The translations under genes were made by a program, and so were the position numbers. This document shows positions 2,682-38,320 of a stretch of 64,000 nucleotides of DNA, in pieces. The DNA comes from Minisyncoccota bacterium (lineage in GTDB: Bacteria > Patescibacteriota > Minisyncoccia > Phycocordibacterales > Phycocordibacteraceae). Within the stretch, counting starts at the first letter, position 1; each line of letters starts with the position of its first letter. The notes below the pieces were generated by a model, which was not told the origin of the DNA, ran no database searches, and worked only from the letters and a program-made list of their open reading frames with translations. The stretch spans positions 113,067-177,066 of the forward strand of contig JAQVIY010000001.1 in assembly GCA_028695415.1 (NCBI GenBank). The letters are read 5' to 3'.

Positions 2682-3410
2682 ATGAACAAACTGCTTGATT
2701 CGCACATGTTGGCTGATGCAAACCTGTTCGTCCTGAGTATGAACCCGTATCCGGGCCGCGGGATTGTCCTCGGCATGAATGAGACGGGAGAAAACCTCAT
2801 CCTGGTGTACTGGATCATGGATCAGAATCGCTTTTTTACCTTCGATGCCGACGGTTCTGTTTCCACCAAAGTCGCCGACAGCTCGAAACTGGTGGACACG
2901 CCGCCCATCGTCTATAACGCGATGCGCGAGATCCACCACGACGGGGTCACCTTTGCCGTTGTCAGCAGTGGCGACCAAACGGACGCTATCGTAGAAGGCC
3001 TTGGCGAAGAGCGGAGCTTCACCGTGACGCATCGCTCGTGTCTCTACGAGCCGGATGCGCCGAACTTCACGCCGCGCATCTCTGCTTACTGCTTCTGGAC
3101 GAACAGTGGTGCGTCAGTCGCCGAGATGGCCGTCTTGAAGAAGTCGCTTGTAAGCGACGCCTGCAACCGACATTTCTACGACCTCACCCTCGAGCCGGGG
3201 TTCGGCTACTGCGTTACAACCTACAAGGGTGACGGCACGCCGCTTCCGTCTTTCGACGGCACGCCGTATCTGGTGCCGCTTCGCGGACATATCCAATCGA
3301 TCGCGAGCGCCTATTGGGACTCACTGAACAGCGAGAACAGAGTTTCGCTCGTGGTGAAGTTCATCCCGAAAAACGGTCCCTCACAGGTTTTCTACATCAA
3401 CAAGTTCTGA
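2682..3410 (+). CDS. purO: archaeal-type IMP cyclohydrolase (PurO family)
   Basis: PYPGRGIVLG N-terminus, PPIVYNAM...VSSGDQTDAIVEGL and NFTPRISAY segments align with recalled archaeal PurO sequences. GAGGAG RBS upstream of ATG 2682. Confidence 0.55.
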   Translation: MNKLLDSHMLADANLFVLSMNPYPGRGIVLGMNETGENLILVYWIMDQNRFFTFDADGSVSTKVADSSKLVDTPPIVYNAMREIHHDGVTFAVVSSGDQTDAIVEGLGEERSFTVTHRSCLYEPDAPNFTPRISAYCFWTNSGASVAEMAVLKKSLVSDACNRHFYDLTLEPGFGYCVTTYKGDGTPLPSFDGTPYLVPLRGHIQSIASAYWDSLNSENRVSLVVKFIPKNGPSQVFYINKF

Positions 3411-3446
3411 AAAGCCTGATTCCAAGGAGGTGGTTAGAACCTAACA

Positions 3447-3490
3447 GCGCCCGCACGGAGAAATCCGTACGGGCGCACCTTATTTCATAT
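3447..3490 (+). terminator. intrinsic terminator-like hairpin after purO
   Basis: gcgcccgcacgg-agaaat-ccgtacgggcgc stem-loop followed by a T-rich stretch. Confidence 0.5.
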
Positions 3491-3584
3491 ACGTGCTTGT
3501 CGAAGAGGAATATGGTACAACTATGCTTTAGAACGACCGTTTCAGGCCCTTTTCGTACAGCAACGTTTTATGGGGAGATAGACA

Positions 3585-3991
3585 TGTTCAGTTCAACAGT
3601 TATACCGCCTGCATCGTCCGAACAAACGCGCGGAAGCGATTATCGGGGTTCGCTTGCGTGGAATCAGTTCGTGACGCAGATCAATAATCTGAATGAAGCG
3701 GGAGAACCGTGCGTTATCGACGTAGCCGGGCTCGGAAAGGACAAGTTTCGCGGTTTTCTCACCGGAGCCCGCATACAAGGACTCTTTCTTATCCTGGAAT
3801 CCCCGGAGCAATTCAAAAAGACCGGGGGTGGCTGGCAGAGTACCGGATTCACCGAGTACAAGGTACACATCTCGAATCACGTGCCGCTTCCGGTAATGCT
3901 GCAAGATGGACGTATCGAAGTCGTGATTGAAGGGATCATCTTCGTGATCTATCCGTATGGCAGGGTCGAATGTCCGCGCTCAGTATGTTGA
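3585..3991 (+). CDS. hypothetical protein
   Basis: ORF with coding-like composition; no recognisable motif. Confidence 0.35.
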
Positions 3992-4064
3992 TGCGGCACC
4001 TTCATCGCCGCAAGAGGAGACTCTTGCGGCGGCTTATTTTTATACCTGCGGTATACTGAGCTGG

Positions 4065-4637
4065 ATGAATCACACTCCCCAGATAAAGAAAGCGATACAA
4101 TTCGCGGCGCGTAAGCACCACGGGCACCTGCGCATCTCGAGTTCGGCAGACGAACCGCTCCCGTATGTAACGCACCTCTTCTCGGTCGCGCTTCTCGTCG
4201 CTGAAGACGGCGCGAGCGATGATGTTGTCACTGCCGCGCTTCTCCACGATACGCTCGAAGATACCGACACGACGCGCGAAGAAATAGTCTCGGCGTTCAA
4301 CGAGCAAGTCGCGAGCCTCGTCGAAGAGGTGAGTGAGGATAAGAAGCTCGAATGGAAAGAGCGCAAAGAAGAATATCTTGTTGGTATGGAACGTTCGAGC
4401 GACGAAGCGCTCCTTATCGCGCTCGCCGATAAGGTAGATAACGTCGAGAGCCGTATAGAAGAATACGAGAAGGAGGGTGATGCGTTTCTCGCTCGCTGGA
4501 AGCGGTCGAACGAAGAGTATCTTTGGTTCTACGATGAAGCGCTTCGTATCGCACAATCTCGATTGCCGAACCACTCACTCACGAAGCGGTACGCCGAGGC
4601 GTGTGCGCGGCAATGTGCTATGCTCTCGGAATCATGA
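4065..4637 (+). CDS. HD-domain protein, RelA/SpoT-type (p)ppGpp hydrolase-like (small alarmone hydrolase)
   Basis: KHHGHLRISSSADEPLPYVTHLFSVA...AALLHDTLEDT matches the SpoT/Mesh1 HD motif. Start chosen at MNHTP. Confidence 0.7.
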   Translation: MNHTPQIKKAIQFAARKHHGHLRISSSADEPLPYVTHLFSVALLVAEDGASDDVVTAALLHDTLEDTDTTREEIVSAFNEQVASLVEEVSEDKKLEWKERKEEYLVGMERSSDEALLIALADKVDNVESRIEEYEKEGDAFLARWKRSNEEYLWFYDEALRIAQSRLPNHSLTKRYAEACARQCAMLSES

Positions 4638-6601
4638 AGCGCAAACGATACGACAAGGCAGATTTCAAATGGGTGACATGGGGTGCGGCTGACTTCAGGC
4701 GCATTGCGGCCGATGGCACACGCCGAAAAAAGGAAGCCTATGCGAAGATACGCGCCATTCCGGCCGAAAAACGCACGTTTGTAAATACGATTTATGCACT
4801 CGAGACATCCGACGAGCGTATGTCGGATGAGATGAACCGTGTCGCTCTTTTGAAAGAAGTCAGTCCTAACGCTGCCATACGCGCAGCAGCAGCAGAAACG
4901 ATTGAGGCCGTACAGAAGCAACTCGTCGAGATAGAGTTCGATCCGCGCATGTATGCGGTCATCAAAGAATATGCCGCGAAACGCGAAAAGCTCTCCGGAC
5001 CTGAAAAGCTTCTTTTCAAAGATCTGAAGAAAGGATACGAACGTATGGGGTTTGACCTGCCGACAGCGAAACAGAAAAAGCTCAAGACGAACATCGCAAC
5101 ATTAGGAAAGCTTGGACTCGCTTTCGACCGCAATCTAAATGAGCACAAAGACCATCTCTTAGTGACGGAAGCAGAGCTCAATGGTCTGCCGGAAAGCTAT
5201 CGTGCTAACCTCACGAAAGTACGGGATAAGTTCAAAATAACGATGGCATATCCAGACGTATACCCGTATATGGCTGGCGCACATGATGAAGAAAAACGGC
5301 GTGAACTGCTTGAAAAGTTCGTTCGCAGAGGCGGCACGAAAAACGTTGTCATTCTCAAGAAGATGTTTCGTCTTCGCGCTGAGAACGCGCGATTGCTCGG
5401 CTACAAGACTCACGCAGACTTCCAAACCGAGCTTCGTATGGCGAAATCGGCCGCTACTGTCTGGCGATTCATTGCCGACCTTGAGCGACGTACCAAGAAA
5501 CAAGTCTCGCGCGATCTCTCGATGCTCAGGGCTGATAAACGTCGTCGTACCGGTGATCCGAAGTCTGTCTTGAGCGCACATGATATCGCATATCTTTTTA
5601 AGCAGATACGCAAGGAGAAATTCGATATCGATTCAGATACCGTGAGAGAATATTTCCCGTTCGAGCACGTGAAGCGCGCGACACTCGACGCATATCAAAA
5701 ATTATTTGGTGTCGTGTTCAAACGCCGCGTCGATGTGAAGCTCTGGCACCCAGACGTGCAACTCTTTGATATATATGATGCGCGCGGTGATTATCTGGCG
5801 ACATTCATTCTCGACTTGTATCCGCGTGAAGGGAAATATGGTCATGCGTGTGCATCTGAACTGACCTATGGTCGACAAGAAGAAAACGGTTATCGACCCC
5901 CACTTGCCGCAATGCTCGCCAATTTCCCGAAACCGAGTGTCGCGAACCCATCGTTAATGAGTCATGGAGAAGTGGAGACATTTTTCCACGAATTCGGACA
6001 CATTATGCATTTCACTCTTACAAAAGCGCGATATAGCGCTCAGTCCGGCTTCAATGTTGCTATGGATTTTGTCGAGGCACCGTCGCAGATGCTTGAGAAT
6101 TGGGTGTGGGATGCTGAAATGCTCACGCGCCTCTCTAAGCACTACAAGACCGGTCAGCCAATGCCGAAAGATCTTATCAAACGCATCATCGATGCTCGCC
6201 TTTTTGGGGAGGCGTGGAGCGTACGCAGCCAGCTGGTGCTCGCATCACTCGATATGGTTATACATACAAAAGGAACGAAAGACCCTGTCGCATTATATGC
6301 CACACTCGATAAGAAATTGATGGGAATCGCACCGCCTAAACGGCAGCTATGGATTGCGGGTTTCGGTCATATTGCGCACGGATACGATGCCGGATATTAC
6401 GGGTATCTCTGGTCAAAAGTATATGCCGAGGATATGTTCAGCAGATTTAAGAAAGAAGGCATTTTGAATCCGAAGACCGGCAGTGACTATCGGCGTTGGG
6501 TACTTGAAAAAGGCTCGAGTATGGAAGAAACGGATCTTGTGAAAGGCTTTCTGGGTCGCAAACCGAATAACAAAGCCTTTCTCAAGTCCATTGGTGCATA
6601 A
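4634..6601 (+). CDS. M3-family zinc oligopeptidase (thimet/oligopeptidase A-like)
   Basis: HEFGH zinc motif (FFHEFGHIMHF) and overall M3 architecture. ATGA overlap with the previous gene. Confidence 0.85.
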   Translation: MKRKRYDKADFKWVTWGAADFRRIAADGTRRKKEAYAKIRAIPAEKRTFVNTIYALETSDERMSDEMNRVALLKEVSPNAAIRAAAAETIEAVQKQLVEIEFDPRMYAVIKEYAAKREKLSGPEKLLFKDLKKGYERMGFDLPTAKQKKLKTNIATLGKLGLAFDRNLNEHKDHLLVTEAELNGLPESYRANLTKVRDKFKITMAYPDVYPYMAGAHDEEKRRELLEKFVRRGGTKNVVILKKMFRLRAENARLLGYKTHADFQTELRMAKSAATVWRFIADLERRTKKQVSRDLSMLRADKRRRTGDPKSVLSAHDIAYLFKQIRKEKFDIDSDTVREYFPFEHVKRATLDAYQKLFGVVFKRRVDVKLWHPDVQLFDIYDARGDYLATFILDLYPREGKYGHACASELTYGRQEENGYRPPLAAMLANFPKPSVANPSLMSHGEVETFFHEFGHIMHFTLTKARYSAQSGFNVAMDFVEAPSQMLENWVWDAEMLTRLSKHYKTGQPMPKDLIKRIIDARLFGEAWSVRSQLVLASLDMVIHTKGTKDPVALYATLDKKLMGIAPPKRQLWIAGFGHIAHGYDAGYYGYLWSKVYAEDMFSRFKKEGILNPKTGSDYRRWVLEKGSSMEETDLVKGFLGRKPNNKAFLKSIGA

Positions 6602-6622
6602 ATCGTGCTATCTTCTTGAGAT

Positions 6623-8506
6623 ATGCCTATTAGCGAAGTACGCAAGCGGTATCTAGATTTCTTCGCGAAGCGCGGGCATGTCATCATCCCGAGCGCTCCT
6701 ATCGTGCCTGAAAATGATCCGACCACACTCTTCACTTCGAGCGGGATGCAACCCCTGGTCCCGTATCTTCTCGGTCAGCCGCACCCCGAGGGTGCGCGCC
6801 TCGTCGACTCACAGATGAGCTTTCGAGCAGAAGATATCGAAGAGATAGGTGACAATCGGCACACCACGTTCTTCGAAATGCTCGGCAATTGGAGCCTCGG
6901 TGATTATTTCAAACAGGAGCAATTGCCGTGGATATTTGAATTCCTCACAAATAAGGACGAGGGTCTCGGACTCGACGCTCATAATCTCTATGTGACGGTT
7001 TTTGGCGGCGATGAGGAATCCGGCATGGCGGCCGATCACGAATCCGTAGAGATTTGGAAAACGCTTTTTGGTGAGAAAGGGATAGAGGCGAAGTTTGTTG
7101 AGCTCGGTACCGAAGAACATGGCAACGAAGTTGGTATGCAAGACGGGCGCGTCTTTTCCTATGGTGCAAAGAAGAATTGGTGGAGCAGGGCAGGGGTGCC
7201 GACCAAGATGCCGACAGGAGAGATCGGCGGACCTGATTCTGAAATCTTCTATGACTTTGGCACGCCTCACGACCCCGCCTTTGGCCCCGAGTGCCACCCG
7301 AACTGCGACTGCGGTCGCTTCATCGAAATCGGCAACTCGGTGTTTATGCAATTCATCAAGCAAGAGGATGGCTCGTTCAAGGAGTTGCCAAAGCGCAATG
7401 TTGACTTTGGCGGCGGGCTCGAACGGCTCACAGCGGCGACACTTCAAAATCCGGACATTTTCTTGATAGATGTGTTTGATGCCGCCCGTACTGCTCTTGA
7501 GACTCGCTCCGGCAAGATGTATTCAAAAGACACACGATCGTTCAGGATTATTTTGGACCATATGCGCGCCGCGGCGTTTATGCTCGCGAGCGGTATCCGC
7601 CCCGCGAACTCCGAACAGGGCTATATCCTCCGCCGTCTTATTCGCCGTTCTATCCGCGAAGCAGACAAGCTCGGGATAAAAGAGGCGGTGCTTGCAGAAG
7701 TCGCGCACGGCTTTGGCGCGGCATATGCCGAGGCGTACCCCCTCATACTTTCTTCAGAAAGCGTCATCAAAGAAGAGCTCGAGAAAGAAGAGGCGCAATT
7801 TAGGAAGACACTTGAGCGGGGATTGAAGGAGTTTGAGAAAGCAATCAGTGTTGCCGGAAATAAAAAGAGAATTCTTTTAGGTAGCAGTATTTTCAATCTT
7901 GTGACGACATTTGGTTTCCCAATAGATTTAATTCGTGAGATAGCTATGGAGCGAGGTTTGGAACTCGAGGAGGATAGTTTCGAAGTCCATATGAGAGAGC
8001 ATCAAGCGCTCTCGCGTGCGGGCGCGGCGCAGAAGTTCGCGGGCGGACTCGCTGACACTGCCGAACAGACCGTGCGCTACCACACCGCGCATCACCTGCT
8101 CTTGAAAGCGCTCCAGATGGTACTCGGCCCTGACGTGCATCAGCGGGGGAGTAATATCACGAGCGAACGCCTGCGCATTGATTTCAGTTATGGCGCGAAG
8201 ATGACCGATGAACAAAAAGCAGAAGTAGAGAAGATAGTAAATGAGAAAATACACGAGGCGCTGCCGGTCGAACGGGTCACGATGCCGCGGGAAGAAGCTG
8301 AGCAGCTTGGCGCTGAGCACGAGTTCGGTGCGAAATATCCGGACATGGTCAGCGTCTATTTCATCGGATCGCGCGACAACGCGTTTTCGATAGAGTTTTG
8401 CGGCGGGCCGCACGTCGCGAACACTGCCGAGCTCGGACAGTTCAAGATTGTAAAAGAAGAAGCCTCATCCGCTGGCATCCGCCGTATCAAAGCAGTGCTA
8501 GAATAA
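6623..8506 (+). CDS. alaS: alanyl-tRNA synthetase, short form lacking the C-terminal C-Ala domain
   Basis: N-terminal FTSSGM motif. Editing-domain HTAHHLL and CGGPHV motifs. Confidence 0.9.
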   Translation: MPISEVRKRYLDFFAKRGHVIIPSAPIVPENDPTTLFTSSGMQPLVPYLLGQPHPEGARLVDSQMSFRAEDIEEIGDNRHTTFFEMLGNWSLGDYFKQEQLPWIFEFLTNKDEGLGLDAHNLYVTVFGGDEESGMAADHESVEIWKTLFGEKGIEAKFVELGTEEHGNEVGMQDGRVFSYGAKKNWWSRAGVPTKMPTGEIGGPDSEIFYDFGTPHDPAFGPECHPNCDCGRFIEIGNSVFMQFIKQEDGSFKELPKRNVDFGGGLERLTAATLQNPDIFLIDVFDAARTALETRSGKMYSKDTRSFRIILDHMRAAAFMLASGIRPANSEQGYILRRLIRRSIREADKLGIKEAVLAEVAHGFGAAYAEAYPLILSSESVIKEELEKEEAQFRKTLERGLKEFEKAISVAGNKKRILLGSSIFNLVTTFGFPIDLIREIAMERGLELEEDSFEVHMREHQALSRAGAAQKFAGGLADTAEQTVRYHTAHHLLLKALQMVLGPDVHQRGSNITSERLRIDFSYGAKMTDEQKAEVEKIVNEKIHEALPVERVTMPREEAEQLGAEHEFGAKYPDMVSVYFIGSRDNAFSIEFCGGPHVANTAELGQFKIVKEEASSAGIRRIKAVLE

Positions 8507-20621: not shown

Positions 20622-21143
20622 ATGTCTGCCACTGAAGGCATCGCTCAAGTAAGCACGCTTGCGACCAATACCGCTTTGACCGCGTGGAACTTCGCGGGCG
20701 ACTTCCTCATCATTATCGTCCTCGTGTCCGTTCTCTTTTTGTACGGATGGTATGTAGGGCGCGGACCGTTCGTCGCTATCCTCCTTGCGCTCTATGCCGG
20801 ATACGCGATTTATGTCGCGTTCCCCTATACCTCGCTCCTCCCAACTGCGCCCGCCTTGACCGCGCTTCTCGCTCAAGCGGGTGTCTATCTCGGGCTCGTG
20901 TTCGTCTTCTTTATCATCCTGCGCCGCGTGGTCGTCTCTGATTTCTTGTATGTCGGCATATTCGGACTCATCGCTCTATCGTTCTTCGCGACCGCATTTC
21001 TTCTCGCGCTCGCCTACCACATATTCCCTGTAGCGGCGGTGTACCACTTCACTCCGCCCGTTGACCTTCTCTTTGCGCCTAAGGAATATTTCTTCTGGTG
21101 GTTTATCGCTCCCGGGGTCGGGCTCTTCTTCCTCGCCCGGTGA
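20622..21143 (+). CDS. hypothetical polytopic membrane protein
   Basis: Five or six hydrophobic helices; no recognisable motif. Confidence 0.5.
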   Translation: MSATEGIAQVSTLATNTALTAWNFAGDFLIIIVLVSVLFLYGWYVGRGPFVAILLALYAGYAIYVAFPYTSLLPTAPALTALLAQAGVYLGLVFVFFIILRRVVVSDFLYVGIFGLIALSFFATAFLLALAYHIFPVAAVYHFTPPVDLLFAPKEYFFWWFIAPGVGLFFLAR

Positions 21144-21272
21144 GGACAAACTTGGCATTATATATTTATATAGCATCTTCAAATGTAACGGTATTACGCA
21201 AGGCGATGCCAAGTTGTACTACCGGGCTCGCCCGGTAACCTCTCCGTGCGTTGGTGTGATAAAATAAACCCC

Positions 21273-21587
21273 ATGACGCAAGGCAACGAGAAAAACGCAG
21301 GAGAAGTGACGCTTGACGACCTGGCACAGATGGTCGCAGGCGGCTTCCAAGATATCGAAACTCGACTAGTGGGCCGAATAGACCGGCTTGAGGCAAAAAT
21401 GGACCAGAAGTTCTCTGAGGTTGACGACCGTCTTCTCAATCTTGAACGCACCACTTCGGAGACGAAGGTCGCGGTGCTTGATATGAAAGAAGATCTCGCT
21501 GCGACGAACAGCGAGAACGAGGATAACTCCCTTCAACTCACCGACCACGAGCGTCGCATCATCGCGCTTGAGACGGCGACCGCCTAA
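21273..21587 (+). CDS. small coiled-coil protein, paralog A (shares an N-terminal 25 aa and a central block with 23446..23790)
   Basis: MTQGNEKNAGEVTLDDLAQMVAGGF... and LEAKMDQKFSEVDDRLLNLERTTSETKVAVLDMKEDLAAT are identical to paralog B. Confidence 0.6.
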   Translation: MTQGNEKNAGEVTLDDLAQMVAGGFQDIETRLVGRIDRLEAKMDQKFSEVDDRLLNLERTTSETKVAVLDMKEDLAATNSENEDNSLQLTDHERRIIALETATA

Positions 21588-21621
21588 CATTGGTCTCTTC
21601 GTCTTCGCGCGGTAGTCGCCT

Positions 21622-23418
21622 ATGGAATCTAGCGAAAATATCGAGACGCCCGTATCGCTTCGCGAGGGTGCACAAGGCGTGTGGCGGCACATGCGCGAAT
21701 ACAAGGGGACGATCATCTCCCTGAGCATCCTCGGCGTCGTCTCGGCAATAGCGAACGGTGCCGTGCCGTACGTCACCGGTCGCTTCTTCGACTCGCTCAT
21801 CGCGCTCTCGCAGGGCACAACCCTCGTGTATTCCGGGCTCCCGCTCTGGGGTGTCTTGCTTGGTACATGGGCGTTGATCCTCATAATTTCTGACGCTGTC
21901 GATTGGTGGATAGACGGCAAGCAACGCTGGCTCGGTACGAACCTTCAAATCGGTACTCAAGCCGAAGGATTCATTCATGTATTACAACTTTCTCTCTCAT
22001 TTCATACCAACGAACACATAAACGGTGTATTCGAGAGAATTAGCGCCGCCTCTTGGCGCATGAGTGAGATATCGAGGACGATTATTCAGATTGGCCCGCA
22101 GATTCTCTCGGTACTTATCGGGGTCGCGTTCGCATTCAGTATAAACACCCCTCTTGCGAGCATCCTCATGCTCGGACTTCTCGTGTATGCGATCGTACTC
22201 TCAATCCTCTTGCGCGGAACTGCCGAAAGAGATTCCATCGCGCACCGCCGATGGAATGACTCTTGGAACGACGCGGCAGCAGCAGCCAGCCAAGCCACCT
22301 CGGTCAAGCAAGCGGCAGCTGAGACATACGAGATACGTCGCATCGACAAAACGATGCGCAATGAGGCCGCAGGGCTCTGGTATGCGAACGAGCTTGTCTG
22401 GAACCGAATCAATTTCTGGCAACGTACCATCGTATTCCTCACACAATTTTCCGTTTTCATCTTCTCTGTCTATTACATCCGCATAGGAGCTATCACTATC
22501 GGCGAACTTGTGGCACTCAACAGCTACGCAGGTATGTTCTTTGGTCCGCTCGTCACCTTCGGTTCAAGCTGGCAGATTATCCGCAACGGCTTCACTTCAG
22601 CAGGACGCGTCAATCGGATCTTCACTCAACCGACCGAAAACTATCACCCGAAAAATTCCCACACATCAGGCAGCACATCTGGAACAGTCACGTTCGATGA
22701 TGTCACCTTCAACTACGAGGCCGGGCAGGAACCAGTGCTCACACATTTTTCCTTTGAAGCGAAGCCGGGCGAGTCGGTCGCCTTTGTCGGCGAGTCGGGA
22801 GTGGGGAAGAGCACGGCCGTCTCGCTCATATCTGCATATTATTTCCCGAACGAAGGTCGCGTGACCGTCGACGGCGTCGACACGCGACAGTGGGATCTGA
22901 CCGCGCTTCGCTCACGCATCGCGGTCGTGCCGCAGGAGGTCGCACTCTTCAACGACACGATTCGCACCAATATCCGCTACGGTACCTTCGACGCCTCCGA
23001 CGCGGCGGTCGAGGCCGCCGCGCGCGAGGCGCACATCCACGACTTCATCATGAAGCAGCCAGCCGGCTATGACACCATCGTCGGCGAGCGCGGCATCAAG
23101 CTCTCGGTAGGGCAGAAGCAGCGCCTCGCAATCGCCCGCGCGATACTCCGCAACCCCGAGTTCCTCATCCTAGACGAGCCGACCTCTGCGCTCGACCCCG
23201 AGACCGAACAGCTCGTCACCGAGTCACTCCAGAAGCTCATGAAGGGGCGCACGACCTTCATCATCGCGCACCGCCTCTCGACGGTACGCCACGCTGACCA
23301 TATTCTCGTGGTGAAGGACGGCACCATCGCCGAGCAGGGCTCTCACGCGACCCTCATGAGGATCACGGGCGGCGTCTATCGCCATCTCTACGAGCTCCAC
23401 GTCGGGCTACATGAGTAG
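21622..23418 (+). CDS. ABC transporter, fused permease/ATPase (MsbA-like exporter) with no N-terminal peptidase domain
   Basis: Six-TM N-terminal domain. Walker A (GESGVGKST), signature LSVGQKQRLAIARA and Walker B ILDEPTSALD. Confidence 0.9.
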   Translation: MESSENIETPVSLREGAQGVWRHMREYKGTIISLSILGVVSAIANGAVPYVTGRFFDSLIALSQGTTLVYSGLPLWGVLLGTWALILIISDAVDWWIDGKQRWLGTNLQIGTQAEGFIHVLQLSLSFHTNEHINGVFERISAASWRMSEISRTIIQIGPQILSVLIGVAFAFSINTPLASILMLGLLVYAIVLSILLRGTAERDSIAHRRWNDSWNDAAAAASQATSVKQAAAETYEIRRIDKTMRNEAAGLWYANELVWNRINFWQRTIVFLTQFSVFIFSVYYIRIGAITIGELVALNSYAGMFFGPLVTFGSSWQIIRNGFTSAGRVNRIFTQPTENYHPKNSHTSGSTSGTVTFDDVTFNYEAGQEPVLTHFSFEAKPGESVAFVGESGVGKSTAVSLISAYYFPNEGRVTVDGVDTRQWDLTALRSRIAVVPQEVALFNDTIRTNIRYGTFDASDAAVEAAAREAHIHDFIMKQPAGYDTIVGERGIKLSVGQKQRLAIARAILRNPEFLILDEPTSALDPETEQLVTESLQKLMKGRTTFIIAHRLSTVRHADHILVVKDGTIAEQGSHATLMRITGGVYRHLYELHVGLHE

Positions 23419-23445
23419 TAGTGCTGGTGTGATAAAATAAACCCC

Positions 23446-23790
23446 ATGACGCAAGGCAACGAGAAAAACGCAGGAGAAGTGACGCTTGACGACCTGGCGC
23501 AGATGGTCGCAGGTGGCTTTTCTGAAATGCACGAGGAGATGCATGGTCTTGAAGAACGACTGGATGGACTCGGTGGCCGAATGGGTCGTCTCGAAGCAAA
23601 AATGGACCAGAAGTTCTCTGAGGTTGACGACCGTCTTCTCAATCTTGAACGCACCACTTCGGAGACGAAGGTCGCGGTGCTTGATATGAAAGAAGATCTC
23701 GCGGCGACGCATATCGCAAACGAGAATAATTCTCACCAACTCATCGGTCACGAACACCGCATCGCGACGCTTGAAGCAAGCGTCGCGTAA
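23446..23790 (+). CDS. small coiled-coil protein, paralog B
   Basis: Same 5' region (about 70 nt upstream plus the first 25 codons, near-identical at nucleotide level) and same central block as paralog A. Confidence 0.6.
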   Translation: MTQGNEKNAGEVTLDDLAQMVAGGFSEMHEEMHGLEERLDGLGGRMGRLEAKMDQKFSEVDDRLLNLERTTSETKVAVLDMKEDLAATHIANENNSHQLIGHEHRIATLEASVA

Positions 23791-23796
23791 CATGCT

Positions 23797-25053
23797 ATGA
23801 CTAGTCTCGCAGACGATTTGCAGGCACGCGGGCTCATTGAGCTCTCGTCTGCTGAACCGGAGAAGATACTCTCCACACCGCGTACCGCGTATATCGGCAC
23901 CGACCCGACTGCCGACTCTCTTCATGTTGGCCATCTCGCGTGGATACTCCTTATGAAGCGCCTTGGCGACGCCGGCCATAAGCTCCTGATTCTCGTCGGC
24001 GGCGGTACCGGTATGATTGGCGACCCGAAAGAGACGGGCGAGCGCCCTATGCTCGATGAGAAAACGGTTGCTCGTAATACTCGCGCGCTCAAAGCACAAT
24101 TGAAACAAATCCTCGGGCGCGTTCCGTTCAAGATGGTCGATAACGCCGATTGGCTTATGGGCACCAAGCTCATACCGTTCCTGCGCGATGTGGGGAAATA
24201 TTTCACCGTAAACGATTTGATAAAACGCGAAATTATCAAGAAGCGGCTCGATGATCCTAACGAGAGCATTTCGTATACTGAGTTCACTTATGCGCTCCTG
24301 CAGGGCTTCGATTACTACACGCTTCACCAGAAGTACGGCGTCGACCTACAGCTCGGCGGCTCTGATCAATGGACGAATGTCCTCTCGGGCGTCGACCTTA
24401 TCCATAAGCGCCTCGGTACGCAGGTGTATGCGCTCGGGATGCCGCTCGTTACTGACGCCTCGGGCAAGAAGTTTGGCAAGTCAGAAGGGAATGCGATCTG
24501 GCTCGACCCGAAGAAGACTTCGCCCTTCCGCTTCTACCAGTTCTGGATAAACCTCCCCGATGCCGGCATCGAGAAATACCTGAAGACCTACACTTTCCTC
24601 CCGCTCAATGAAATAAGCGCTCTTATGGAGCTCCATACCCGCAATCCGGGCGAGCGTCAGGCACAAGAGACCCTCGCACGGCTCGTGACCGAGATTGTCC
24701 ACGGCCCCGCGGCAGTCGCTCAAGCCGCCGCCGCCTCTGATGCGCTGTTTGGTGAGACACCGTTCCACGAGCTCTCGGGACCAGCACTCCAAGTCGCGCT
24801 CGCCGAAGCGCCGTCCGTCACCCTTTCCAAGAAAGACGTCGCCGATGGCTCTTCGCTTGCTGAAGCGCTTGTCGCAGGCGGCCTTGCGACGTCGAAATCA
24901 GATGCGCGACGACTCATCGAAGGGAAGGGCATCACGCTCTCGGGTCAGACCATCACCGACCCTGATCTAAAGCTCTATCCGGGCGATCTCTCACACGGCT
25001 ATGCGCTCGTGCGCAAGGGTAAACAGGGTGTGCTGATTCTCGTTTTGAAATAA
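23797..25053 (+). CDS. tyrS: tyrosyl-tRNA synthetase
   Basis: HVGHL (HIGH-type) motif, KFGKS (KMSKS-type) motif and a C-terminal S4 domain. Confidence 0.92.
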   Translation: MTSLADDLQARGLIELSSAEPEKILSTPRTAYIGTDPTADSLHVGHLAWILLMKRLGDAGHKLLILVGGGTGMIGDPKETGERPMLDEKTVARNTRALKAQLKQILGRVPFKMVDNADWLMGTKLIPFLRDVGKYFTVNDLIKREIIKKRLDDPNESISYTEFTYALLQGFDYYTLHQKYGVDLQLGGSDQWTNVLSGVDLIHKRLGTQVYALGMPLVTDASGKKFGKSEGNAIWLDPKKTSPFRFYQFWINLPDAGIEKYLKTYTFLPLNEISALMELHTRNPGERQAQETLARLVTEIVHGPAAVAQAAAASDALFGETPFHELSGPALQVALAEAPSVTLSKKDVADGSSLAEALVAGGLATSKSDARRLIEGKGITLSGQTITDPDLKLYPGDLSHGYALVRKGKQGVLILVLK

Positions 25054-25085: not shown

Positions 25086-25172
25086 GCGTCGGTGGCGGAG
25101 TGGTCAATCGCAACAGACTGTAAATCTGTCGGGCATAGCCCTACGAAGGTTCGAATCCTTCCCGGCGCACCA
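25086..25172 (+). tRNA. tRNA-Tyr (anticodon GTA), type II long variable arm, CCA encoded
   Basis: Hand-folded cloverleaf. Acceptor gcgtcgg/ccggcgc, anticodon loop ctGTAaa, variable arm cgggcatagccctac, T-arm gaagg-ttcgaat-ccttc. Confidence 0.8.
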
Positions 25173-37840: not shown

Positions 37841-38320
37841 CTAGATTCTCCCCTTTCGTTTAATACGGTCTGACTGTGCTTTTATATCAGATAACTTTTG
37901 CTCCAAATCTTTATCGAGCGGGCGGCTTTTTCCTGTTATTTCTTTTTGTCTGTGAGCATAGAGCAGTTTTACTGCTTGGCTCCATAACTCAAAGTCTTTC
38001 GCTTTTGTACCAAACAGGTGATTTTTCTCAAAGAAGGGGACTATAACGTCATGCAGCTCGGATGTGTTCTGGACAGAATAACGAACCTGATCCCCTGCTC
38101 TTTTGAAAGATATATTACCTACACTAAATTTGTCTCTAATGAGTTCGAGAAGTCCGGCATCTGATGGATGCAACACAATTGCAAATTCAGTTTTCCAATA
38201 ATGATACTCATACAGTATATTTCCATCATCGTCATATCTTTTATCTGCTCGATAGTTCAGAGCAAAACATCCTTCGCCATCAACAAAACCAGCGACGTAG
38301 CTGTCGTCGAGACCTTTCAT
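37841..38320 (-). CDS. free-standing LAGLIDADG homing endonuclease (single-motif, I-CreI-like size)
   Basis: YVAGFVDGEGCF LAGLIDADG motif near the N-terminus, about 159 aa, sitting in a conspicuously AT-rich islet. Confidence 0.75.
   Translation of the reverse strand: MKGLDDSYVAGFVDGEGCFALNYRADKRYDDDGNILYEYHYWKTEFAIVLHPSDAGLLELIRDKFSVGNISFKRAGDQVRYSVQNTSELHDVIVPFFEKNHLFGTKAKDFELWSQAVKLLYAHRQKEITGKSRPLDKDLEQKLSDIKAQSDRIKRKGRI

Follow-up and report, generated by a model that had tools for sequence, protein, structure and literature searches.

The question raised by this locus is whether two small genes, situated on either side of a gene for an ATP-binding cassette (ABC) exporter, encode the cargo of that exporter or stand beside it for other reasons. 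The genes, here termed ccA and ccB, each encode a hydrophilic coiled-coil protein, and lie within a stretch of 64,000 nucleotides (the window) from contig JAQVIY010000001.1 of a Minisyncoccota bacterium, in the local order grpE-dnaK-dnaJ-mem173-ccA-ABC-ccB-tyrS-tRNA-Tyr. The original prediction, made from the letters alone, drew attention to their shared N-terminus ending in Gly-Gly, and offered as a hypothesis that this might be a double-glycine secretion leader recognised by the neighbouring exporter. The answer favoured here, and considered very likely to be correct, is that ccA and ccB are diverged paralogues of a Patescibacteria coiled-coil family that have been patchily gene-converted within a slot of variable gene content, and that they do not form a secretion cassette. 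The features on which the argument turns are the following.

21252..21272, + strand: promoter-like element of ccA, TGGTGTGATAAAATAAACCCC, identical to 23425-23445
21252..21346, + strand: 5' gene-conversion tract of 95 nt that takes in the promoter and codons 1-25 and matches 23425-23519 at 98% identity, 74 consecutive nt of it without a mismatch
21273..21587, + strand: ccA, encoding a hydrophilic coiled-coil protein of 104 residues (NCBI PHV99_00795), between mem173 and the ABC gene
21393..21499, + strand: central gene-conversion tract of 107 nt, a perfect match to 23596-23702 (permutation p<1e-5)
21622..23418, + strand: ABC half-transporter, with a transmembrane domain (TMD) followed by a nucleotide-binding domain (NBD), of ABCB or type IV exporter architecture as judged by Pfam, NCBIfam and PDB matches
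23425..23445, + strand: promoter-like element of ccB, the same sequence as at 21252-21272, starting 7 nt past the ABC stop codon
23446..23790, + strand: ccB, encoding a coiled-coil paralogue of 114 residues (NCBI PHV99_00805), between the ABC gene and tyrS

Repeat searches combined with pairwise alignment bore out the earlier observation that direct repeats carrying small coiled-coil genes flank the exporter gene, and resolved them into two blocks represented on either side of it: the first of 95 nt at 98% identity (21252-21346 and 23425-23519), and the second of 208 nt at 86% identity (21364-21571 and 23567-23774). No third copy was detected by tblastn in the 64-kb window. The claimed near-identity of the first 25 codons and of a central block was equally well founded: residues 1-25 of both proteins are identical (MTQGNEKNAGEVTLDDLAQMVAGGF), the corresponding codons containing three differences, all synonymous and two of them inside the 95-nt tract, while the 38-codon central block (codons 41-78) contains a single synonymous change. 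The remainder has indeed diverged with insertion or deletion, although the indels sum to 10 codons rather than the 9 initially reported. The predicted size range of 105-114 residues was correct for ccB (114) and slightly too high for ccA (104), the 113-residue open reading frame (ORF) opening at a GTG at 21246 merely extending upstream of the conserved ATG.

Within these repeats identity is clearly clustered. The longest perfect runs occupy 74 nt (21252-21325) and 107 nt (21393-21499), and when the 41 mismatches were permuted over the 319 aligned positions a run of such length arose in 0 of 100,000 trials (p<1e-5). Segment-wise identities were then calculated against orthologues from other species (L001, L006 and L005; loci in other genomes are cited by L numbers throughout). 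In codons 1-25 the two copies are 96% identical to each other, compared with 80-86% between each copy and the L001 and L006 orthologues, and in the central block the equivalent values are 99% and 75-77%. The first variable segment gave 51% (51-60%) between the copies and 49-61% between each copy and the same orthologues, and the C-terminal segment 63% and 65-68%. The tracts are thus closer between the paralogues (96-99%) than to the orthologues (75-86%), whereas the divergent segments are no closer between the paralogues than to the orthologues of other species, and ccA and ccB are therefore not recent duplicates. Of the alternative that had been put forward to secretion, namely a recent segmental duplication with gene conversion at the 5' ends, the conversion accordingly survives and the recent duplication does not. 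The pattern is best explained by supposing that ccA and ccB, whether diverged paralogues or alleles with separate origins, have lately been homogenised in two tracts, and the mosaic itself by recent gene conversion between older paralogues some 2.2 kb apart. Selection at the nucleotide level as the agent keeping the tracts alike was considered, and is argued against by the fact that those tracts are only 75-86% identical to their orthologues. The locus appears to be a clean case in which small paralogues of a reduced genome, that of a member of the candidate phyla radiation (CPR), have undergone gene conversion in patches.

Two unrelated CPR genomes, L106 (2643-3144) and L074 (7341-7783), were also seen to contain family members in tandem, the two genes of a pair being separated by 25-26 nt, and the L106 pair is a mosaic like that of ccA and ccB, with similar ends and a diverged middle. 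Patchy homogenisation of adjoining paralogues may be a recurring event in the family.

The extent of the shared sequence upstream of the two genes had been overestimated at about 70 nt: the common element is only the 21 nt of TGGTGTGATAAAATAAACCCC, and identity collapses directly 5' of 21252 and 23425. This element, which is not accompanied by a Shine-Dalgarno sequence, ends 7 nt before the ATG and reads as an extended -10 promoter box (TGnTAAAAT). That reading is adopted because the element is conserved among cc orthologues, TGTGnTAnnAT-like boxes being present at an equal distance upstream of those in L001, L002, L004, L005 and L134; in the tandem family members of L074 and L106, TATAAT-like boxes likewise lie less than about 20 nt upstream of each ATG. 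A generic sigma-70 scan did not call promoters for the cc genes, because these have no -35 element. The cc mRNA is probably leaderless or nearly so, and each copy appears to be a cassette complete in itself, with promoter and ORF in about 340 bp, that is not coupled to the ABC gene. A comparable arrangement was noted at tyrS in relatives, where a TGnTATAGT box lies 6 nt before the ATG in the absence of a Shine-Dalgarno sequence (L137 6800-6813; L133 3178-3229; compare window positions 23790-23797), and leaderless transcription may be common in the lineage and not peculiar to the cc genes.

The wider affiliation of the two proteins was established by successively more sensitive searches. A word-index search recovered only 7 close homologues, all of which carry an invariant TLDDLAxMVAGGF, and a profile built from these 7 closest sequences and run against 1.84 billion representatives matched 1134 clusters at E<=1e-3, a figure to be read with the caveat that low-complexity coiled-coil regions inflate weak matches and that the N-terminal motif is the specific part of the profile. 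Many of the matched clusters represent proteins of about 100 residues in which the match begins near residue 3. Typical members have some 70-130 residues, a Lys-rich N-terminus followed by the motif (I/V)T(L/I)(D/E)DLAxM(V/I)xxGF, RFDxVDx-type heptads and, at the C-terminal end, R(V/I)xxLE; in ccA and ccB the motif is VTLDDLAQMVAGGF, at residues 12-25. Positions R105 and E110 are nearly invariant in an alignment of 31 sequences. None of 116 family members contains a stretch resembling a transmembrane segment, nor was a signal peptide found.

A degenerate DNA pattern, in which both residues preceding the terminal Gly-Phe were left free and which was consequently unbiased at that position, was scanned through GTDB species genomes and located at least 120 loci, of which about one is estimated to be a chance match. 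Among the matches listed, the titles were mostly those of Patescibacteria lineages, the rest being unlabelled save for five under other names. The original prediction had suggested a search for further copies of the leader, and had named as unfavourable to itself the finding of such copies on many unrelated genes without transporters nearby; the same N-terminus was found on at least 120 small genes across Patescibacteria, with an ABC ATPase in only 5 of 120 loci. By motif and profile, ccA and ccB are members of a very large family found almost only in Patescibacteria (CPR). Motif-bearing genes were encountered in metagenome-assembled genomes (MAGs) labelled as a Thermoplasmata archaeon (L085), as 'Gammaproteobacteria' (L010 and L063) and as Gemmatimonadales (L007), and the L085 protein is identical to that of L011, a member of Saccharibacteria; these bins are likely to be mis-binned CPR contigs and not a sign of wider distribution. 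A phage origin for the cc genes was dropped when the same pattern returned 0 matches among the viral contigs of IMG/VR, and a profile scan of metagenomes yielded no more than 6 loci, distant and short, from which nothing on synteny could be learned.

Scans of 31 members against Pfam, NCBIfam and PHROG gave no match above cut-off, and only generic coiled-coil matches below it. The AlphaFold2 model of ccB is one unbroken helix from residue 14 to residue 113 (predicted local distance difference test score 86) with the Gly-Gly inside it, and a Foldseek comparison of this single-helix model with the PDB gave no informative match. The family profile matched PDB entry 7O97 (E 1.7e-8) from the N-terminal motif onward. 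That entry is a 'hypothetical protein UY81_C0065G0003' of 93 residues from a Candidatus Giovannonibacteria bacterium, with the N-terminus KKPITLEKLVSMVAVGFAE; the wording of its title ('converte…') suggests an engineered or converted form, and no relevant paper on either the family or 7O97 came to light in a literature search. The family is thus CPR-restricted, has a sharply conserved N-terminal helix and one deposited crystal structure, and is without a Pfam or NCBIfam model; families so widespread in CPR are candidates for a part in lineage-specific cell biology.

Set against this background, the supposed leader takes on a different aspect. The double-glycine consensus is Leu(-12)-X3-Glu(-8)-Leu(-7)...Val(-4)...GG (PMC6363468), and the resemblance noted by the original prediction is sound for positions -1 to -4 of the cc proteins (V-A-G-G) and fails at -7, -8 and -12, which are Ala, Leu and Thr, the register being off by one. 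Nor is the Gly-Gly conserved in the family. Among 116 members the residue before Gly-Phe is Lys in 58, Arg in 19, Asn in 10, Glu in 8 and Gly in 8, so that Lys or Arg occupies the position in 77 (66%) and Gly in 8 (7%), and the cc protein of L134, whose gene adjoins the closest full-length orthologue of the ABC exporter (75% identity), reads QEGF. The only invariant residues in the 31-sequence alignment are Gly24 and Phe25, and since both are invariant, conservation straddles the supposed cleavage site. Further, internal occurrences of the motif are seen in three members (P0008, P0009 and P0016). No leader or bacteriocin hidden Markov model (HMM) was matched in Pfam (E<=1) or NCBIfam (E<=0.1), and the top-25 summaries obtained when 31 members were scanned contain none either, which was the outcome of the HMM search for double-glycine leaders that had been advocated. 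On these alignments the 'leader' corresponds to the N-terminal helix that is the signature of the family, with Gly, in this small Paceibacteria clade, in place of the usual Lys or Arg, and it is unlikely to act as an export signal removed by cleavage.

The exporter itself was as had been described in that it lacks a C39 peptidase domain. Pfam recognised ABC_membrane (residues 36-310) and ABC_tran (374-522) only, and neither C39 nor a C39-like domain; alignment to NHLM_micro_ABC1, HlyB and bacteriocin_ABC begins at profile positions 140, 213 and 222 respectively, and the protein thus aligns to C39-containing models only past their peptidase region. The best NCBIfam matches were MsbA_rel (348.3 bits against a cut-off of 780.4) and MsbA TIGR02203 (332.8 against 602), with NdvA also below its cut-off, and these scores ruled out assignment as an equivalog of the lipid A flippase MsbA, to which the protein is alike in architecture only. 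Matches in the PDB were to ABCB1, Sav1866, Atm1 and NdvA. Among the homologues listed, the best 120 share 55-75% identity with it and most have about 598 residues, those with names being from Paceibacteria or Parcubacteria, and the protein falls in a Paceibacteria-specific orthologous group. The window yielded no second ABC exporter.

The relationship between exporter and cc genes was then followed through the corresponding loci of relatives, in which a conserved frame, dnaJ-mem173-[slot]-tyrS, encloses a slot for which eight different contents were recorded over the window and 13 loci. The borders of the slot in the window, and the contents observed, are as follows.

20622..21143, + strand: mem173, encoding a polytopic membrane protein of 173 residues, left border (ORF list and homologues)
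23797..25053, + strand: tyrS, encoding tyrosyl-tRNA synthetase (TyrRS), right border, with tRNA-Tyr at 25086-25172
Slot empty, mem173-tyrS: L138 (5280-7070), L140 and L141, the closest relatives (TyrRS 83-89% and mem173 80-88% identical)
Slot with ABC only: L133 and L137
Slot with ABC and an unrelated ORF: L135/L136
Slot with ABC and cc: L134, and L001 (a partial contig)
Slot with cc only: L005
Slot with cc and a different ABC (31-40% identical): L002
Slot with ABC, cc and a second ABC: L004
Slot with cc-ABC-cc: this window only

The commonest position for a cc gene is that of ccB, between ABC and tyrS, where positional orthologues occur in L001, L134 and L004; the position of ccA, between mem173 and an ABC gene of the window type, is unique to the window, the single cc gene of L002 also lying directly after mem173. 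L005 has a cc gene and no ABC, and L133, L135 and L137 have ABC and no cc gene. In the family at large the separation is more marked: an ABC ATPase of any kind was present in 5 of 120 loci of up to 8 kb each, at most one of them possibly an exporter, and Pfam analysis of 81 upstream and 70 downstream neighbours returned assorted housekeeping genes with no family represented more than three times. Content that varies in this way among close relatives makes the mem173|tyrS slot useful for the study of gene gain and loss in Paceibacteria.

Two of these slots have further peculiarities. In L004 the 3' end (1-48, …DLHVGLYE*) of an ABC gene of the window type is followed by cc (49-420) and by a second ABC gene (445-2235) whose product is only 31% identical, and the two could constitute a heterodimeric pair split by cc. 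In L002 the second-type ABC gene (3160-4929) is called as a 516-residue product and a separate C-terminal piece of 60 residues, which suggests a frameshift or a pseudogene.

Across Paceibacteria mem173 is a recurring neighbour of the exporter gene. It comes after dnaJ in every relative with that side of the locus present, and in the 4 relatives that keep both genes (L133, L134, L135/L136 and L137) a window-type ABC gene follows it directly, after a gap of 3-17 nt and with no cc gene intervening, whereas ccA comes between the two in the window. It may be that mem173 and the exporter are partners. Its homologues (best 120 of 685 at E<=1e-3) are of about 173 residues and 69-93% identical, those with names being hypothetical save for one VanZ family protein, and no Pfam or NCBIfam family was matched; a relationship to CvpA (colicin V production) was entertained from size and topology, and was dropped when neither Pfam nor NCBIfam supported it.

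Taken together, these data are consistent with a scheme in which the cc proteins would remain within the cell as oligomeric coiled-coil scaffolds or adaptors, the conserved N-terminal helix would serve as their interaction surface, and the exporter would work independently of them, possibly with mem173. Several points weigh against the favoured interpretation. As to location and binding, the scaffold or adaptor role draws on sequence and predicted structure. The Gly-Gly is conserved within the narrow clade and invariant in the 7 closest homologues, and positions -1 to -4 do fit double-glycine leaders. A cc gene adjoins an ABC exporter gene in 5 of 13 clade loci (the window, L001, L002, L004 and L134; L003 overlaps L002 and ends before any ABC gene), an adjacency commoner than in the family at large that may reflect a lineage-specific functional link. 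Lastly, gene conversion was deduced from the pattern of identity, and an alternative course of events, in which one copy was acquired from a related lineage and recombination ensued, would leave a similar mosaic.

A specific form of this last alternative, which is considered improbable, holds that circular or foreign DNA bearing ABC and a cc allele integrated into a resident cc gene by a Campbell-type event, leaving hybrid direct repeats able to delete the ABC gene. It would account for the absence of both ABC and cc from the closest relatives (L138, L140 and L141), for the mosaic nature of the copies, with divergence at an inter-species level outside the identical tracts, and for the mem173-cc-tyrS arrangement of L005, which is the product expected from recombination between flanking copies; such recombination between the cc repeats of the window could, to judge by their sequence, delete ABC in the same way. 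However, a single crossover would produce one junction per copy and not a pair of identical tracts lying apart; the pattern of presence and absence is accounted for equally well if a streamlining lineage has lost ABC repeatedly; and no integrase, transposase or other gene for mobility was seen among the flanking ORFs, albeit that no scan for such genes was made. There is furthermore no sign of recent transfer, the nucleotide identity of the ABC gene to those of L001, L134 and L133 (71-76%) being no higher than that of tyrS. Recent horizontal transfer of ABC had been contemplated in its own right on account of the 95% identity of the C-terminal 91 residues to L001, and was rejected on the same grounds, the corresponding nucleotide identity of 76% not exceeding that of tyrS. 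A further proposal regarded as unlikely is that cc genes are autonomous mini-cassettes, each of about 340 bp with its -10 box and leaderless ORF, that spread between housekeeping genes, and that the repeats, kept alike by conversion, cause intervening genes, in this instance ABC, to be gained and lost.

The cargo and exporter hypothesis, according to which the 24-residue N-terminus is a GG-type signal for a C39-less exporter and is perhaps cleaved by a separate protease, must be judged very improbable. The match of V-A-G-G to the consensus at -4 to -1 (PMC6363468), the invariant Gly-Gly of the 7 closest homologues and the adjacency in 5 of 13 clade loci all speak for it. They are outweighed by the misfits at -7, -8 and -12, by the occurrence of Gly-Gly in only 7% of the family and its replacement in the L134 orthologue, by an invariant F25 and a predicted helix that runs through the cleavage site, and by the internal position of the motif in some members. 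The exporter has no C39 domain and no counterpart in the window, although no search was made for a peptidase with a gene of its own; cc and ABC occur without each other in relatives, ABC is essentially absent from the vicinity of the wider family, and no leader HMM was matched. The hypothesis advanced by the original prediction is accordingly unsupported, given the missing C39 domain, an invariant pair that is Gly-Phe and not Gly-Gly, and an ABC ATPase in just 5 of 120 loci, and the locus can be struck from the candidates for a 'new peptidase-less GG-leader exporter'. A variant in which the AGG|F form has been co-opted in the clade as a recognition helix for the C39-less exporter is less likely than the mini-cassette proposal. 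A hydrophilic coiled coil of 100 residues would, as a cargo, be unlike the known GG-leader peptides.

That the second copy is an artefact, produced by chimeric assembly of strain variants in a metagenome, is scarcely credible: the source is a MAG and perfect runs of 74 and 107 nt are common to the repeats, but those runs fall short of typical read lengths and the sequence around them clearly differs, ORF and promoter are intact in each copy, the contig extends to 209 kb with a surrounding gene order as in relatives, and independent assemblies show ABC-cc-tyrS (L001 and L134) and mem173-cc (L002 and L005), only the junction of ccA with a window-type ABC gene being unseen elsewhere.

Beyond the slot itself, a tRNA-Tyr (GTA) gene lies 32 nt 3' of tyrS, a pairing kept in relatives (in L138 with 98% identity over the tRNA). 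An ORF of 159 codons on the reverse strand (37841-38320), whose product starts MKGLDDSYVAGFVDGEGCFAL, resembles a LAGLIDADG homing endonuclease; since Rfam finds no rRNA in the window, this putative gene would be either free-standing or inside a protein-coding gene. In L002 a gene matching Pfam LAGLIDADG_3 lies immediately after tyrS (6245-7075).

A comparison with known systems places these conclusions in context. With the double-glycine leader peptides of peptidase-containing ABC transporters (PCATs) and ABC transporter maturation and secretion (AMS) proteins, such as ComA, CvaB and LahT, the window shares a short amphipathic N-terminal helix ending in V-A-G-G and an ABCB-type exporter gene next door. 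It differs from them in having no C39 domain, in the loss of the Leu(-12)/Glu(-8)/Leu(-7) register, in a Gly-Gly that is not conserved among homologues, in a helix and a conservation that run past the cleavage site, and in showing no co-occurrence with transporters across genomes. The exporter is the same as MsbA, NdvA and Sav1866 in the order of TMD and NBD, in its length of 598 residues and in a strong full-length similarity, yet falls below the equivalog cut-off of every named subfamily. The heptad regions of DUF7310, DUF1664, HSBP1, XhlA and SlyX align with those of the cc proteins, all at scores below the Pfam gathering thresholds; when members were checked individually, DUF7310, DUF1664 and most PHROG matches did not reach the N-terminal motif, and XhlA possesses a transmembrane segment whereas the cc proteins do not.

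The closest correspondence is with the TLDDLAxMVxxGF family, 7O97 included, with which the window proteins share the position of the motif after a Lys-rich start, a length of about 100 residues, the heptads and the terminal R(I/V)xxLE, together with stand-alone genes that, in the relatives checked, have a -10 box close upstream of the ATG. Where most members read x-(K/R)-G-F, however, the window clade reads A-G-G-F, and where the copies of other genomes are scattered or in tandem, those of the window lie 2.2 kb apart and flank an ABC gene.

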